Of a stretch of DNA of 64,000 bases, positions 1-47,721 are shown piece by piece. Below the pieces are notes generated by a model. The model saw only the letters and a program-made list of their open reading frames with translations. It ran no database searches and was not told where the DNA came from. The DNA is taken from the NCBI RefSeq assembly GCF_002854065.1, contig NZ_CP024147.1. One strand, written 5' to 3'. A program made the translations under genes and the position numbers. The DNA is from Escherichia coli (GTDB taxonomy: Bacteria > Pseudomonadota > Gammaproteobacteria > Enterobacterales > Enterobacteriaceae). The stretch's first letter is position 1. Each line of letters begins with the position of its first letter.

Positions 1-81
1 GTATCCGTTGCTGAATCTGGCATATGTGGGAGTATAAGACGCGCAGCGTCGCATCAGGCATTTTTTTCTGCGCCAACGCAA

Positions 82-108
82 AAAGACCATCCGTCAGGAT
101 GGCCTTTC
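82..108 (-). terminator. rrn operon terminator hairpin downstream of 5S rRNA
   Basis: GC-rich dyad (ccatcc/ggatgg arms) flanked by A-run and T-run just past the 5S 3-prime end on the minus strand. Confidence 0.5.
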
Positions 109-118
109 GCTTTATTTG

Positions 119-238
119 ATGCCTGGCAGTTCCCTACTCTCGCATGGGGAGACCCCACACTACCATCGGCGCTACGGCGTTTCACTTCTGAGTTCGGCAT
201 GGGGTCAGGTGGGACCACCGCGCTACGGCCGCCAGGCA
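119..238 (-). rRNA. rrfG: 5S ribosomal RNA
   Basis: Reverse complement matches the E. coli 5S sequence as I recall it (tgcctggcggc...ctgccaggcat), 120 nt. Confidence 0.95.
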
Positions 239-330
239 AATTCTGTTTTATCAGACCGCTTCTGCGTTCTGATTTAATCTGTATCAGGCTGAAAATCTTC
301 TCTCATCCGCCAAAACAGCTTCGGCGTTGT

Positions 331-3233
<2,903 letters not shown>

Positions 3234-3426
3234 TCACAACCCGAAGATGTTTCTTGCGACTCATCATCGTGTTGCGAAAATTTGAGAGACTCACGAACAA
3301 CTTTCGTTGTTCAGTGTTTCAATTTTCAGCTTGATCCAGATTTTTAAAGAGCAAATATCTCAAACATCACCCGAAGATGAGTTTTGAGATATTAAGGTCG
3401 GCGACTTTCACTCACAAACCAGCAAG

Positions 3427-3502
3427 TGGCGTCCCCTAGGGGATTCGAACCCCTGTTACCGCCGTGAAAGGGCGGTGTCCTGGGCCTCTAGACGAAGGGG
3501 AC
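3427..3502 (-). tRNA. gltW: tRNA-Glu in the 16S-23S spacer
   Basis: Reverse complement gtccccttcgtctagaggcccaggacaccgccctttcacggcggtaacaggggttcgaatcccctaggggacgcca; position in spacer of the clpB-proximal rrn operon. Confidence 0.95.
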
Positions 3503-3587
3503 GTATCAGTCTGCTTCGCAAGACGCCTTGCTTTTCACTTTCTATCAGACAATCTGTGTGAGCACTGCAAAGAACGCTTCTTTAAGG

Positions 3588-5129
<1,542 letters not shown>

Positions 5130-5253
5130 AAAAGTTTGATGCTCAAAGAATTAAACTTCGTAATGAATTACGTGTTCACTCTTGAGACTTGGTATTCATT
5201 TTTCGTCTTGCGACGTTAAGAATCCGTATCTTCGAGTGCCCACACAGATTGTC

Positions 5254-5273
5254 TGATAAATTGTTAAAGAGCA
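5254..5273 (-). promoter_or_regulatory. rrn leader boxA antitermination element
   Basis: Reverse complement tgctctttaacaatttatca in the leader between P2 and the 16S 5-prime end. Confidence 0.7.
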
Positions 5274-5310
5274 GTGCCGCTTCGCTTTTTCTCAGCGGCG
5301 CGGGGTATGC

Positions 5311-5338
5311 ATAATACGCTTTCCCGCCACAGAGTCAA
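5311..5338 (-). promoter_or_regulatory. rrn P2 promoter
   Basis: Reverse complement gives -35 TTGACT and -10 TATTAT with 16-bp spacer. Confidence 0.7.
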
Positions 5339-5429
5339 GCATTTATTTTTGCTTTCTCTACCGGAATTCTCAGGAGAACCCCGCTGACCCGGCGGCGTGT
5401 TTGCCGTTGTTCCGTGTCAGTGGTGGCGC

Positions 5430-5480
5430 ATTATAGGGAGTTATTCCGGCCTGACAAGCGAAAAATATAAAAACTTTATC
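5430..5480 (-). promoter_or_regulatory. rrn P1 promoter with GC-rich discriminator and AT-rich UP element
   Basis: Reverse complement TTGTCAggccggaataactcccTATAATgcgccaccactg; A/T-rich block immediately upstream. Confidence 0.8.
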
Positions 5481-5541
5481 GTTCGCTCACTTTTCAGGCA
5501 AAACATCTTAAATATAGTCTTTTCCGTCTAACTTATAGACA

Positions 5542-5567
5542 AAAACGAGCCCCGAAGGGCTCGTTTT
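5542..5567 (-). terminator. clpB intrinsic terminator
   Basis: Hairpin aacgagccc-gaa-gggctcgtt followed by T-run on the minus-strand transcript, directly after clpB stop. Confidence 0.6.
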
Positions 5568-5572
5568 ATCAT

Positions 5573-41580: not shown

Positions 41581-42030
41581 CTACTCTTCAGGAATACGCA
41601 ACACTTGCCCCGGGTAAATTTTATCCGGGCTTTTTAGCATCGGTTTATTCGCTTCGAAGATTTTATTGTACAGATTGGCGTTACCGTAGACCTGTTTGGA
41701 AATGGCACTCAGAGTGTCGCCAGACTTAACGGTATAAAACTGGCTGGCAGTGGCTGGTGTCGCCGTTTTCACCTGATCATCAACACTGGCAATGCCGGAA
41801 ATATTCCCCACCGCAACAAGGATTTTCTCTTTCGCCTCCTGACTCAGGCCGTCACCAGTGACCGTCGCTTTGCCATCGGCAATTTGAATGTTCACTTTAT
41901 CGGCATCCGGTATACCGGTTTTGTTCAGATGCTCCTGCACCTTCTTCGCCTGATCGTCTTTATCGTGCTGACCTGTAACCGCGTCCCAGAGTTTTTCTCC
42001 GGCATCTTTCACAAAATTGAACAGACCCAT
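41581..42030 (-). CDS. ygaU: K+-binding protein Kbp/YgaU (BON + LysM domains)
   Basis: Start moved to [20 protein letters not shown] (149 aa); C-terminal LysM ([34 protein letters not shown]). Confidence 0.85.
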
Positions 42031-42113
42031 AGCTACCTCATTCGTTAACGGAAACACTCAGAAAGTGTAGCAGAGGAACGCGGCGCGTTAACGCCGCGGG
42101 GATGAGCACAGGT

Positions 42114-42272
42114 TTAATCGCGGGTTTGCACCCAGAACGCGTGAATCAAACCGGGGATATACCCAAGCAGTGTCAGCAGAATATTAATAATGAACGCCCA
42201 ACCGAACCCTTTACCGAGCAGCACGCTGAGCGGCGGCAGAATGATGGTGATGACGATTCTCCAGAAACCCAT
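42114..42272 (-). CDS. yqaE: Small membrane protein YqaE (Pmp3/UPF0057 family), 52 aa
   Basis: Reverse complement encodes MGFWRIVITIILPPLSVLLGKGFGWAFIINILLTLLGYIPGLIHAFWVQTRD-stop; below the ORF-track length cutoff. Confidence 0.8.
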   Translation of the reverse strand: MGFWRIVITIILPPLSVLLGKGFGWAFIINILLTLLGYIPGLIHAFWVQTRD

Positions 42273-42454
42273 ATGTACTCCCTATAAGAAAATTACTCAT
42301 TGTTTAAAAAGAGATTTTATCTCTTAAGCGTAGTAATTTTAGCGGAGCCTGCCAGTTTCAGCTTACGCTTTTACTCTCATTTACGCTGCTGAGGCTGGTA
42401 TATGTTGCATTTTTAGTTTAGAGTTTACTTAATTTAGAAAATACTTAAATAAAT

Positions 42455-42754
42455 ATGACTGAACTCGCGCAATTACAGGCCAGTGCCGAACAGGCAGCGG
42501 CCTTATTGAAAGCAATGAGCCACCCTAAACGGTTGCTGATTCTGTGCATGCTTAGCGGTTCCCCCGGCACCAGCGCGGGAGAGCTGACGCGCATTACCGG
42601 ACTGAGCGCCTCTGCGACATCACAGCATCTCGCTCGTATGCGGGACGAAGGACTTATCAACAGCCAACGGGATGCCCAACGCATTCTATATTCCATTAAA
42701 AATGAGGCGGTAAATGCCATTATCGCCACCCTGAAAAATGTCTATTGTCCGTAA
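42455..42754 (+). CDS. ygaV: ArsR/SmtB-family transcriptional regulator
   Basis: 99-aa ORF with HTH; forms a pair with ygaP. Confidence 0.9.
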   Translation: MTELAQLQASAEQAAALLKAMSHPKRLLILCMLSGSPGTSAGELTRITGLSASATSQHLARMRDEGLINSQRDAQRILYSIKNEAVNAIIATLKNVYCP

Positions 42755-42763
42755 GGAGTCACT

Positions 42764-43282
42764 ATGGCTTTGACAACCATTTCGCCGCATGATGCACAAG
42801 AATTAATCGCACGCGGCGCAAAGTTAATCGATATTCGTGACGCTGATGAATATCTTCGTGAACATATTCCTGAAGCAGATCTGGCTCCATTATCCGTGCT
42901 GGAACAGTCAGGTCTCCCGGCTAAATTACATCGCGAGCAAATTATATTCCACTGCCAGGCAGGTAAACGCACCAGTAATAACGCCGATAAATTAGCAGCG
43001 ATTGCCGCCCCCGCAGAAATCTTTTTACTCGAAGATGGGATTGATGGCTGGAAAAAAGCAGGATTGCCAGTAGCGGTAAATAAATCTCAACCCTTGCCGT
43101 TAATGCGCCAGGTGCAGATCGCTGCGGGTGGTTTAATATTAATCGGCGTTATACTGGGTTATACCGTAAATAGCGGTTTCTTCTTATTAAGCGGCTTTGT
43201 TGGTGCCGGGTTACTGTTTGCAGGAATTAGCGGTTTTTGTGGGATGGCAAGGTTGTTAGATAAGATGCCGTGGAACCAATGA
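42764..43282 (+). CDS. ygaP: Membrane-anchored rhodanese (thiosulfate sulfurtransferase)
   Basis: 172-aa ORF, rhodanese active-site Cys (FHCQAGKR) and C-terminal TM segments. Confidence 0.9.
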
Positions 43283-43334
43283 GCTTGAGAAGCGACGCCG
43301 GACGCGCCATAGCAGTGACATCCGGCCTCAGTAA

Positions 43335-43739
43335 TTAGATCAGGAAATCGTCGAGAGATTTACCTTCTGCCAGCGCCTGAGCGATTGGCTTCGGTGTACG
43401 GCCCTGACCGGTCCAGGTTTTAGTTTCACCGTTAACATCGGTGAATTTATATTTCGCCGGACGCGGCTGGCGTTTTTTACCAGCGCGTGGTGCAGCAGCA
43501 GAGCTATTACCCAATAACTCTTCCGGGTTAATTCCGTCAGCCTTCATCAGCTCCAGCCAGGTGCTAATTTTTTCCTGACGCTCAGCCAGTTCACGCTGCT
43601 GCTGTTCTTCTTCTTCACGTCTTTCTTTAGTGACAACCCTGAATTTTTCGAGCATTTCTTCAAGAACGTCAATGGAGAATTCGCGAGCCATCGCACGGAG
43701 GGTGCGAATGTTATTTAAACTTTGTAACATTACGGACAT
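43335..43739 (-). CDS. stpA: H-NS paralogue StpA (nucleoid protein / RNA chaperone)
   Basis: 134-aa [39 protein letters not shown]... Confidence 0.95.
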
Positions 43740-44406
43740 AATAAAGAAAACCTTTTAACGCCAAAACAAAAAAGTATTTCGTCGCGTAGTGTAAGCGATC
43801 ACTTATTATATTTCCACAAAATTTAATCTATTTACAGTCCTGCGCGAGATTATTTCAGCTGTTATTTTCTGAAACTCTCAGAATAATTTCAAGATTATAT
43901 ATTAGCCATTTTGATGAGTAATTTAGGTTATTGGTGAACAGAGTGGCGCTCTCTGCTCGCTAATTCCGCAAGCCTGACAAAACCGAAGTGAATAAAAATG
44001 CAATATAAAAGAATAAAAGAAAACACCCCTCACTGGTGCTTTCTGCTGTTAATGTACATTTTCTGGCATAAAAAATGCTGTAAATGACCCGGTCACGACA
44101 TACACCGAATTCTCTACGCTTATAGCGTTACCTCACCCCCAAACTTTCATTAGTGAAATTAAAGACAAGGCCATATCTAATTGATTTAATTGAAAATAAA
44201 TCATATCGGCATGTAAAAATCCACAATGTACAAAAAACGAGCCGTTACGGAATATTTTATCTACAAAAACTGACTAAATAAAAATTTTTCACTAATTGAT
44301 TAGTCATAGCCAGCGATATACGCTATGCGAAAATGCAGATGGCAATGAGATCCACTGCTTTCATCTCCATTAACATCCCATTACGCCTTTATTAAGGAGC
44401 ATTAGC

Positions 44407-44856
44407 ATGTTCTCACCGCAGTCACGCTTGCGTCATGCAGTTGCAGATACGTTCGCGATGGTTGTTTACTGTTCTGTCGTGAACATGTGTATTGAAGTTT
44501 TCCTCTCCGGAATGAGCTTCGAACAGTCTTTTTATTCCAGATTGGTAGCGATTCCGGTGAACATCTTAATTGCATGGCCATACGGTATGTACCGCGATCT
44601 GTTTATGCGCGCGGCACGCAAAGTTAGCCCGTCGGGCTGGATAAAAAATCTGGCGGATATCCTGGCTTATGTGACGTTCCAGTCACCGGTGTATGTGGCG
44701 ATCTTGTTAGTGGTGGGCGCAGACTGGCATCAGATTATGGCGGCGGTCAGTTCAAACATCGTTGTTTCGATGTTGATGGGGGCGGTTTATGGCTACTTCC
44801 TCGATTATTGCCGCCGACTGTTTAAAGTCAGCCGTTACCAGCAGGTAAAAGCCTGA
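44407..44856 (+). CDS. alaE: L-alanine exporter AlaE
   Basis: 149-aa membrane [34 protein letters not shown]... Confidence 0.9.
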
Positions 44857-44865
44857 CTCTTCTTT

Positions 44866-44888
44866 TCGCGACTGGCATCGCCAGTCGC
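44866..44888 (+). terminator. Hairpin after alaE
   Basis: gcgactggc-atc-gccagtcgc dyad followed by a weak T-rich stretch. Confidence 0.45.
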
Positions 44889-44892
44889 GTCT

Positions 44893-45237
44893 TTAACTGG
44901 CTTCGCCAAATAAACCATTCAAATAACGTTCAAGCGCAACACGCGAACTAAAGCCATGCGGGATACCGTAATGCTCGTGTCGCTCGCCTGCTAAATAGAG
45001 CGGAAATTGCTGGTAATGATCGCAAGTTTTAATATCGGAAGCGGGTTCAGCCAGTGTCGAACTGCGTTCTTTTAATGTTGGATGAATTACCAGAGCGGTA
45101 CGTCCCATTCGCGCTTCGCGATTAACATAGACATAATTTTCCCCACGGCGGTAACCATACGCTTTCTGGGTTACCACATCGACAGTAAAACCGACTTTTT
45201 CAAGTACGCGCGCCACCTCGTCTGGTCGTAAATACAT
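44893..45237 (-). CDS. ygaC: Uncharacterised protein YgaC
   Basis: 114-aa [50 protein letters not shown]... Confidence 0.85.
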
Positions 45238-45388
45238 ATTTGATCCTCGTTATTATCAACCGCGGGCCTACCTTACCTGATTGCGCATTCACAACGCTTT
45301 CAGAAAAGTCCATAAAGCCGCGATGAACCTCAGTTAAGAAAATTATGGTCTACACTGAAAATTACATCGAATTCTAATGGGGGATCAT

Positions 45389-45718
45389 ATGTTTAACCGA
45401 CCGAACCGCAACGACGTTGATGATGGCGTGCAGGATATCCAGAATGATGTCAATCAATTAGCTGACAGCCTCGAATCTGTATTGAAGTCCTGGGGCAGCA
45501 ACGCCAAAGGGGAAGCTGAAGCCGCACGCAGTAAAGCTCAGGCTTTGCTGAAAGAAACCAGGGCGCGAATGCATGGTCGTACTCGCGTTCAGCAAGCCGC
45601 ACGCGATGCCGTTGGCTGCGCGGATTCTTTTGTTCGTGAAAGACCCTGGTGTAGCGTGGGAACTGCTGCTGCGGTAGGTATTTTTATCGGTGCGTTGTTG
45701 AGCATGCGTAAATCGTAG
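45389..45718 (+). CDS. ygaM: ElaB/YqjD-family ribosome-associated membrane-anchored protein YgaM
   Basis: Start set to MFNRPNRNDVDDGVQDIQNDV; an in-frame ATG 12 nt upstream (45377) is an alternative; C-terminal TM anchor. Confidence 0.8.
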   Translation: MFNRPNRNDVDDGVQDIQNDVNQLADSLESVLKSWGSNAKGEAEAARSKAQALLKETRARMHGRTRVQQAARDAVGCADSFVRERPWCSVGTAAAVGIFIGALLSMRKS

Positions 45719-45867
45719 TGAGACGATGACAAGCAGTAGTCTGACTTCTGAAAAGTACTCAGTGCGTCAACGCCTTGTCCGCCTACAGGCCTGAAAAACA
45801 TAGCGCATCAGGGGATTTTGCCCTGGTCACCAGTCTTATAGGACCCCGAAGCCTGGCTTCGGAGTTA

Positions 45868-47202
45868 TTAATTTAAAGCACTGCGCAATTGCTGTGCTAC
45901 CTGTCGCGCCATACTTTCGCTAACGATATTCGTAAACGAGAGCAATAATCCTCCGTCCTCGCTTGAGCGGATACGCCAGTCGCTAAGTGCCTGTACGGCA
46001 AGACCAGCAGCATTGGCTTTATGCACGAATGTCACGTCATTACCTGCTAGTTTGATCACCATCTGGATACCGCCTTTTTGCGGCACAACCTGAAATCCCT
46101 GCTGCGTAAGTGCCTGCTCAATCCACTGCCGTCGCTGGGCATAATGCTGGCGCATTTTCTTCAGATGCCGCCAGAAATGCCCCTCACGGATGAAATCTGC
46201 CAGTGTGTTCTGCCACAGTACGGGTACAGCACATGGTTCCAGTGACGCCTGCTGCCGGAATTGCGAAATCTGCTCCACCGGCACCACCAGCCACGCACAG
46301 CGCAATGCAGGAAATAGCGCTTTGCTGAATGTTCCGGCATAAATCACCCGCTGCGGCGCGTCGAGACTTTTTAGTGCCGGTAACGGCTTACCGTGATAGC
46401 GAAACTCACTGTCGTAATCATCTTCAATAATCCATGCCTGACTACGCTCTGCCCATTCCAGTATCTGATACCTACGCGCTAAAGAGAGTGCCACACCCAG
46501 CGGGCTTTGGTGTGCCGGAGTAATCAGGGCAAAACGCGCATCAGGATAATTTTGTATTCCGCTTGTGACATCCAGTCCGTTGTCATCAACCGGCACAGGT
46601 AAAATTTCCAGACCGTGGCGAGTGACAATCGGGCGAATCAGCGGAAAGCCGGGATCTTCCATCCACATCCCGTCTCCCGGTTGCGCCAGAGCGTGCAGAA
46701 TTAAAGCCATTGAGGCCGCATAACCGTGAGTGATAAAGACCTGCTCTGGCTGACAATCAATCCCACGTGAAACGCGTAAATAATCAACAATAGCCTCGCG
46801 CAAGGCCGCCTCGCCGCAGACATCACCTAATGCCAAATCAAAACGCGTCTGGGTACGCAGACGGCGGCCCATCACCCGCGCCCACAATTCACGCGGAAAA
46901 AGATCAAGTGCAGGTAGCCCCATCTGAAAAGGCAGCGGCTGCTGACTTTCACCAGCAAAAGCCACGACATCCACAGCAGACTGTTGCGGATGTATCTGCT
47001 CACTGACAAAGGTACCCGCCTGTCCCCGCCTGACCAGCCATCCCTGCGCCACCAGCTCAGCATAAGCATTTTCGACAGTGGATCGAGAGACACCCAGCTC
47101 CTGCGACCAGGTACGGCTCGAGGGTAGCCTTGCGCCAGGTTTCAGTTCTCCTTGCTCGATAGCCGTTTTTAACTGACGGGCGATATCCTGATAACGTGGC
47201 AT
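45868..47202 (-). CDS. MocR/GabR-type regulator (GntR wHTH fused to a fold-type I aminotransferase-like PLP domain)
   Basis: 444-aa ORF; N-terminal MPRYQDIARQLKTAIEQGELKPGARLPSSRTWSQELGVSRSTVENAYAELVAQGWL (GntR HTH) and a putative PLP lysine in YAGTFSKALFPALR. Confidence 0.85.
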   Translation of the reverse strand: MPRYQDIARQLKTAIEQGELKPGARLPSSRTWSQELGVSRSTVENAYAELVAQGWLVRRGQAGTFVSEQIHPQQSAVDVVAFAGESQQPLPFQMGLPALDLFPRELWARVMGRRLRTQTRFDLALGDVCGEAALREAIVDYLRVSRGIDCQPEQVFITHGYAASMALILHALAQPGDGMWMEDPGFPLIRPIVTRHGLEILPVPVDDNGLDVTSGIQNYPDARFALITPAHQSPLGVALSLARRYQILEWAERSQAWIIEDDYDSEFRYHGKPLPALKSLDAPQRVIYAGTFSKALFPALRCAWLVVPVEQISQFRQQASLEPCAVPVLWQNTLADFIREGHFWRHLKKMRQHYAQRRQWIEQALTQQGFQVVPQKGGIQMVIKLAGNDVTFVHKANAAGLAVQALSDWRIRSSEDGGLLLSFTNIVSESMARQVAQQLRSALN

Positions 47203-47289
47203 ATGGTCTGCTTTTTTAGGTAATTTATGGCTCTCTTTAGCAGTCCATTATAGTGCTACATTGCGGGCGTTAATAAGAGGAGAAACTGT

Positions 47290-47721
47290 ATGACTACATT
47301 ACGTCAGCCTTACTACGAACTTAGCCCGGCAGTGTATAACGCACTGGTGCAGGCCAAAACGGCACTGGAAAATAGCACGCTGGATACCACGTTGATGGAG
47401 TTAATTTATTTGCGCGTCTCGCAAATCAACGGCTGCGCATTTTGTCTGGAGATGCACAGCAAAGCATTGCGCAAATCCGGTGTGCCACAACACAAACTGG
47501 ACGCCCTGGCAGGCTGGCGCGTAAGCCATCATTTTGATGAACGCGAGCGAGCGGCGCTGGCATGGGCGGAATCAGTGACCGATATTGCCAGAACCCATGC
47601 GGAAGACGAGGTTTATCAGCCTTTGCTTGAGCATTTCAGCGCAGCAGAAATCAGCGATTTAACGTTTGCCATCGGGCTGATGAATTGTTTTAACCGTCTG
47701 GCCGTTTCCATGCGGATGTAA
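47290..47721 (+). CDS. Carboxymuconolactone decarboxylase / AhpD-like family protein
   Basis: 143-aa ORF with NGCAFCLEMH (CxxC...H) signature; strong AAGAGGAG Shine-Dalgarno; divergent from the MocR gene. Confidence 0.8.
   Translation: MTTLRQPYYELSPAVYNALVQAKTALENSTLDTTLMELIYLRVSQINGCAFCLEMHSKALRKSGVPQHKLDALAGWRVSHHFDERERAALAWAESVTDIARTHAEDEVYQPLLEHFSAAEISDLTFAIGLMNCFNRLAVSMRM

Follow-up and report, generated by a model that had tools for sequence, protein, structure and literature searches.

The stpA-alaE intergenic region of Escherichia coli: a divergent control region with a neutrally drifting AT-rich centre and a very probably fortuitous 29-codon open reading frame

What is encoded in the long AT-rich gap between the divergent genes stpA and alaE, and does the 29-codon open reading frame (ORF) lying within it specify a protein? 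Both questions arose from a sequence-only reading of a 64,000-nucleotide stretch of the E. coli chromosome (hereafter the window), in which the gap was taken to fit a regulatory region for stpA and/or alaE and the ORF as a weak candidate gene. The gap extends over 667 bp (positions 43740 to 44406) between stpA on the minus strand and alaE on the plus strand, both genes being identified by their RefSeq annotation in K-12 MG1655 and in an E. coli record of 100% identity. Its GC content is 0.35 versus 0.51 for the whole window, and stays between 0.31 and 0.39 in 200-nt windows across the gap; the extent, flanking genes and AT-richness first described were thus confirmed. Nowhere else in the window is there so long a stretch from which ORFs of 50 aa or more are absent. 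The claim that it represents the longest non-coding gap holds when RNA genes are counted as genes, the other long ORF-poor stretches being an rrn operon (1-5572) and, near 29.2-30.0 kb, the smpB-ssrA region. The 667-nt sequence was matched once each in 5419 of 5426 complete E. coli genomes, with one record at 100% identity, and the coverage fell below 80% in only two of these 5419. No annotated feature was found between stpA and alaE in K-12 or among the 20 E. coli records listed.

We conclude that the gap is very probably a control region shared by stpA and alaE, and that the 29-codon ORF is a chance ORF within a neutrally evolving spacer. The pattern of conservation, the chance expectation for ORFs, the disruption of this ORF and its lack of a coding signature were all directly observed (see below; for coordinates, see Table 1). 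In the organization that we propose, approximately 160 bp next to stpA and approximately 196 bp next to alaE would carry the core promoters, the 5' UTRs and the proximal regulator sites. The central 310 bp or so would form an AT-rich spacer subject to neutral drift in sequence, while a gap that is both long and AT-rich persists throughout Enterobacteriaceae. As the published experiments show, the region and a second site in ygaP are bound by Lrp, which bridges the DNA, turns up stpA and switches alaE in response to leucine; the spacer is also marked by H-NS. The ORF would then be a by-product of the drifting AT-rich centre, giving rise to no maintained protein.

Table 1. Features of the stpA-alaE region, in window coordinates
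Feature	Position	Strand	Basis
stpA coding sequence (H-NS paralogue), left boundary of the gap	43335-43739	-	ORF list; RefSeq annotation of the identical stretch and of K-12
stpA-proximal conserved block (160 nt), putative stpA 5' UTR and core promoter	43740-43899	-	Conservation (function putative)
Perfect TATAAT hexamer, putative stpA -10	43805-43810	-	Sequence; lies within a block invariant in seven Escherichia sequences
AT-rich central spacer (311 nt) of neutral rate, holding the candidate ORF	43900-44210		Divergence comparison
29-codon ATG ORF MQYKRIKENTPHWCFLLLMYIFWHKKCCK, very probably a chance ORF	43998-44087	+	ORF list; shuffles; conservation tests
Terminator-like hairpin and U-run, antisense to the ORF	44018-44044	-	Pattern scan
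alaE-proximal conserved block (196 nt), putative Lrp-responsive promoter and alaE 5' UTR	44211-44406	+	Conservation
A/T block CGGAATATTTTATCT, Lrp-consensus-like, family-wide	44248-44262	+	19-genus alignment
Promoter-like TTGATT-17 nt-TACGCT, putative alaE core promoter	44296-44324	+	19-genus conservation
alaE coding sequence (L-alanine exporter), right boundary of the gap	44407-44856	+	ORF list; RefSeq annotation of the identical stretch and of K-12

The regulatory role of this region is already known from published ChIP, AFM and SELEX work. The stpA-alaE locus itself served as an example in the study of Lrp by Ziegler & Freddolino (mBio 2023; PMC10127797), in which ChIP-seq peaks of Lrp were detected within this region in K-12 and both genes were found to be Lrp-regulated as measured by reporter and qRT-PCR assays. 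Lrp activates stpA; on alaE, it exerts slight repression in minimal medium and strong activation in the presence of leucine, isoleucine and valine (PMC10127797). Deletion of the Lrp peak in ygaP reduced the Lrp-dependent activation of stpA more than five-fold (PMC10127797). By AFM, Lrp was observed to bridge a stpA-alaE DNA fragment, the bridging being abolished by leucine, and this bridging links the promoter region and the ygaP site (PMC10127797). The stpA/alaE spacer was also listed as H-NS-marked, together with RpoD-holoenzyme SELEX sites (Shimada et al. PLoS One 2014; PMC3946193). The regulatory interpretation offered from the letters alone is thereby supported, by Lrp binding, regulation and bridging on one hand (PMC10127797) and by the H-NS mark on the other (PMC3946193). 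The same locus, the same AT-richness and the same occupancy, control and bridging by Lrp are concerned, and nothing different in kind from the description in PMC10127797 was found. The region is an ordinary, already characterised divergent promoter region under the control of Lrp and H-NS. What is new here is limited to the neutral rate of the central 310 bp or so versus the conserved proximal blocks, and to the gap length and the low GC content across the family.

To follow the gap through the family, we scanned one genome per species for AlaE and obtained 80 loci. The divergent neighbour of alaE was stpA in 58 of the 80 species. Among these 58, the gap ranged from 475 to 789 bp in length (median 557) and from 0.31 to 0.43 in GC content, always at least 0.117 below the local GC content (local 0.51). 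Divergent flanking genes (58 of the 80 species) and conserved promoter-proximal sequence (a block shared by 19 genera) are both as expected for a divergent promoter region. In the window and in all 58 species, the gap is AT-rich relative to its surroundings, a composition that H-NS-type proteins prefer.

The sequence divergence within E. coli was then compared in six strain pairs among the window, K-12, O157:H7 and the B2 strain S88, using as a neutral yardstick 493-498 four-fold degenerate sites of eight neighbouring genes. This comparison divides the gap into three parts. For the centre (43900-44210), the pairwise divergence was 0.032-0.087 versus 0.030-0.093 at the four-fold sites, the two being equal in all six pairs. 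The stpA-proximal block showed only 0-1 differences per 160 nt (0-0.006 per site) among the representatives of E. coli phylogroups, versus 3-9% at four-fold sites; it is 88-95% identical across Escherichia species, and part of it is conserved into Salmonella and Citrobacter. The divergence of the alaE-proximal block was 0.005-0.026 per site within E. coli. Its segment 44215-44340 is 87-93% identical across Escherichia, and the core of the block is conserved in 19 genera. Altogether, conservation is higher in the proximal blocks than in the centre or at the four-fold sites, by a factor of approximately 3 to 15 or more. Between species, the identity of the centre to other Escherichia species dropped to only about 52-55%, versus 77-79% at the four-fold sites of alaE, and no similarity to the central spacer was detectable in other genera. 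Hypervariability or accelerated evolution of the centre, suggested by these between-species figures, was rejected after the within-species comparison with four-fold sites; as the within-species figures argue, the excess between species would be due to neutrality combined with decay of the alignment.

Within the drifting centre, a few short motifs are kept in all seven Escherichia sequences: ATAAA-ATGCA at the ATG of the ORF (43998-44003), CATAAAAAATGCTG (44065-44080) and AATTCTCTACGC (44108-44119). These may represent regulator-binding sites rather than coding features.

Upstream of alaE, the alignment revealed a block of approximately 44247-44325 that is conserved across 19 genera. It includes an invariant AAATAAAAAT run and the A/T block CGGAATATTTTATCT, which agrees with the Lrp consensus YAGHAWATTWTDCTR at 11 of 15 positions in E. 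coli and at 12 of 15 in Salmonella (counted manually, the consensus being too degenerate for statistics). Within the candidate alaE promoter, little or no variation was seen among the 19 genera at the TTG and TA..CT positions, and the element as a whole scores below the threshold of the consensus promoter scanner. As judged from sequence and conservation, the exact promoter hexamers of both stpA and alaE (Table 1) are putative assignments. Scanning with consensus patterns was of little discrimination: the counts of promoters and terminators were at the shuffle expectation, and the Lrp consensus, which is too degenerate, gave three weak sites in the gap (three mismatches each; about one expected by density) and 97 matches versus 77 expected in the window; these Lrp matches were left out of the evidence. 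The promoter strings proposed in PMC3946193, located here at 44153-44217, were not adopted, being picks near low-resolution SELEX peaks that fall partly in the neutral centre. The AT-rich centre itself would serve as a scaffold for nucleoid proteins.

The 29-codon ORF was found in the ORF list exactly as the sequence-only reading had written it. In 1000 dinucleotide-preserving shuffles of the 667 nt, however, an ATG ORF of at least 29 codons appeared in 94%, with a mean of 2.4 per shuffle, indicating that the observed ORF is not longer than expected by chance. The longest ATG ORF per shuffle averaged 48 codons, above the observed value, so that the real gap is if anything ORF-poor. Eight other ORFs of 20-42 codons are present in the gap on both strands. 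As to the start site, for which no convincing Shine-Dalgarno sequence had been noted, the best upstream pairing with the anti-Shine-Dalgarno sequence is weak (-3.6 kcal/mol), in the middle of the range among the ATGs of the gap. This weakness is uninformative because the pairing is no better for stpA (-3.8 kcal/mol) and ygaM (+0.1 kcal/mol).

The state of the ORF within the species was examined in 14 E. coli sequences, consisting of 12 genomes taken at even steps down the similarity ranking, K-12 and the window. Nine haplotypes of the 90-nt region were identified. The 29-aa product is specified in three of the 14 strains. A product of 27 aa is specified in eight, by a TGT to TGA change at codon 28, the 27-29-codon version thus being intact in 11. 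In two strains (O157:H7 Z1769 and CEC13004), a GAA to TAA change at codon 8 (position 44019) leaves only 7 aa. The remaining strain, E. coli 162.2, would yield a product of about 40 aa owing to a one-base homopolymer insertion after 44069; its stpA is also frameshifted, and both changes are probably homopolymer sequencing errors rather than biology. As one mismatch in 90 nt corresponds to 98.9% identity, the band of at least 99% in a megablast search represents exact copies. By this measure, the haplotype with the stop at codon 8 (O157:H7 type) is present in 310 of 5426 complete genomes, and the haplotype of the window in only four of the 5426.

No coding signature was detected in this variation. 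The 14 variable sites in the 90 nt are distributed 5/4/5 over the three codon positions, and by manual reading approximately 12 of the 14 substitution sites alter or end the protein, with only about two changes being synonymous. The pN/pS ratio, calculated by the Nei-Gojobori method between haplotype pairs, was 0.85, a value of wide uncertainty as it relies on 27 codons and about 14 variable sites. The two other plus-strand frames gave 0.79 and 0.48, and the candidate frame is therefore no lower. Within the low power of this small sample, the ratio of 0.85 and the lack of third-position excess give no sign of purifying selection.

Outside E. coli, the frame is not conserved. In Escherichia sp. 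MOD1-EC7003, the nearest sister species sampled, the region is 86% identical and its third codon is the stop TAA. Four others (Escherichia sp. E1V33, E. whittamii, a further GTDB Escherichia species and E. albertii) have the ATG as well, but the frame that follows it specifies unrelated peptides of 22-24 aa. All seven Escherichia sequences retain the ATG at 43998 with its ATAAA-ATGCA motif, and an ORF of 22-29 codons starts at this ATG in six of the seven. No similarity to the ORF was found in 50-odd other species, including Salmonella, Citrobacter, Enterobacter and Klebsiella. Taken over all sequences, the frame is neither constantly open nor constant in length (29, 27, 7 or about 40 aa in E. 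coli, with stops at codon 8 and, in the sister species, at codon 3).

The peptides have no match in Pfam, and NCBIfam gave a single match at noise level (11.4 bits, the cut-off being 110). A collection of 15 billion protein sequences contains none of the exact peptides, a negative to be read with the knowledge that gene callers seldom report such short products. The peptide string occurs in no paper text searched; it is also missing from the microproteome supplements, as is any true match to the stpA-alaE locus. The ORF thus belongs to no described family and carries no prior annotation.

Validated small proteins of E. coli with 50 aa or less, such as AzuC (bioRxiv 10.1101/511675, 10.1101/2021.07.02.450978), share with the candidate a similar size (27-29 aa for the latter), a position between genes, a short run of hydrophobic residues and a weak Shine-Dalgarno sequence. 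Unlike these proteins, the candidate has a frame that is unconserved beyond E. coli, nonsense alleles within the species, a pN/pS near 1 and no annotation or family model. In contrast, no difference was found between the candidate and the spurious ORFs of AT-rich intergenic DNA: its length is within the shuffle expectation, its composition of K, N, I, F, Y and L reflects AT-rich codons, and several comparable ORFs of 20-42 codons lie in the same gap, none of them conserved. The conservation check that had been proposed for the ORF was run and decided against a gene, with interruptions in close relatives (codons 8 and 3), a pN/pS of 0.85 and no homologue outside E. coli. As a whole, the initial interpretation stands for the regulatory region, in agreement with the Lrp and H-NS literature, and fails the conservation tests for the ORF as a gene.

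Other explanations were considered for the ORF and for the centre in which it lies. The ORF might encode a young small protein of 27-29 aa restricted to E. coli, with a charged N-terminus, a short hydrophobic core and a basic, Cys-rich C-terminus, which is expressed under special conditions, dispensable and lost in such strains as O157:H7. The unbroken 27-29-codon frame of 11 of the 14 E. coli and the ATG conserved across Escherichia agree with this idea, and many validated small proteins of E. coli, as well as stpA and ygaM, do without a strong Shine-Dalgarno sequence. Nevertheless, such an ORF is expected by chance in 94% of shuffles, shows a pN/pS of 0.85 without codon-position bias, is cut by nonsense alleles within the species (codons 8 and 28) and by a stop in the sister species (codon 3), lies in DNA that changes at the neutral rate, has no evident plus-strand promoter upstream, and finds neither a family match nor its peptide in any protein collection. 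We therefore regard a young protein as very unlikely. A more specific version, in which the frame is a newly born, E. coli-specific, membrane-associated small peptide, translated only when the H-NS/Lrp complex is relieved and lost again in O157:H7, is exceedingly improbable; if true, it would capture a gene in the course of its de novo birth, within an AT-rich spacer that is silenced.

The opposite strand was considered for a small RNA of approximately 170 nt, antisense to the ORF, which would be transcribed from a promoter-like site at 44217-44189 with a start near 44182, and end at the hairpin at 44044-44018. The site, TTTACA-17-TT(C/T)AAT directed towards stpA, is near a holoenzyme SELEX peak (PMC3946193), and the hairpin, with a predicted stability of -12.5 kcal/mol in the window (z = -3.2), is followed by the U-rich run UUUUAUUCUUU. 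The promoter, however, is a sequence pick near a low-resolution peak (PMC3946193), and the whole segment is neutral and unalignable outside E. coli. The hairpin is weaker in K-12 (-11.1 kcal/mol) and lost in S88, the polymorphisms at 44026, 44028 and 44029 in its 3' arm abolishing it in B2 strains. Terminator-like sites numbered two against 0.6 ± 0.7 expected, which is not compelling. A scan of 42000-46000 against Rfam at a permissive E-value yielded only a chance-level match to rli43 (16.9 bits against a gathering score of 100), the region thus showing no membership in a known RNA family. The hairpin is probably fortuitous, and we give the small RNA very little credence. As to the centre as a whole, diversifying selection or repeated allelic replacement, tuning stpA or alaE between lineages, would account for its low identity between species relative to the alaE four-fold sites, and also for the polymorphisms that form distinct haplotype groups. 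Within E. coli, where the alignment is unambiguous, the divergence nevertheless equals that of four-fold sites in every pair, and the between-species excess is explicable by indels, alignment saturation in AT-rich sequence and codon-usage constraint on four-fold sites. This scenario is extremely unlikely, and a neutrally drifting spacer between two constrained blocks is the reading that we retain.

For practical purposes the ORF matters little, and it should stay off lists of small-protein candidates. A useful by-product is the clean split of a long intergenic region into two constrained blocks and a centre that changes at the synonymous rate. Such a partition fits the view that scaffolds for nucleoid proteins need composition and spacing but not specific sequence. 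The analysis also shows how chance ORFs can be told from real ones in regions of this type.

Two other small ORFs of the gap were noted. A 20-codon ATG ORF at 44333-44395 on the plus strand ends with a TAA stop that overlaps the Shine-Dalgarno sequence of alaE (TAAGGAG). All 14 E. coli, Escherichia sp. MOD1-EC7003 and E. albertii carry this upstream ORF in full; three other Escherichia species have it shortened to five codons, and the 5' UTR is unconserved in other genera. A role as leader peptide is therefore unlikely, as far as can be judged from sequence comparison. On the minus strand, a 32-codon GTG/ATG ORF at 43928-44026, antisense to the candidate, has a hydrophobic N-terminus and a charged C-terminus. 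It was rejected as a candidate: open in all 14 E. coli, it nevertheless gave a pN/pS of 0.63 with variable sites distributed 6/6/5 over codon positions, and is unconserved beyond the closest sister species.

Variation was also observed in the neighbourhood of the gap. Between ygaM and nrdH, the window carries pdxR and a gene of the carboxymuconolactone-decarboxylase family (approximately 45868-47720), both of which are also present in S88 and O157:H7. K-12 MG1655 is without these two genes, ygaM being followed directly by nrdH. Collinearity with strain 100416, the record with the 100% gap match, is limited to 32250-64000 of the window. Upstream of tRNA-Ile, ypjCB and ypjA, strain 100416 has annotated genes of a P2-type prophage, and positions 1-32250 of the window hold instead the rrn operon, clpB, smpB-ssrA and an integrase/IS1 island; the neighbourhood there is thus strain-variable. 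In E. coli QL57EC, an IS1X2 insertion (2843-3610 of its stretch; approximately from window position 44081 onwards) has taken the place of the 5' end of alaE and of the half of the gap next to it. The alaE gene of this strain is annotated as a partial pseudogene and represents a natural knock-out, indicating that disruption of the region is tolerated in at least one strain.
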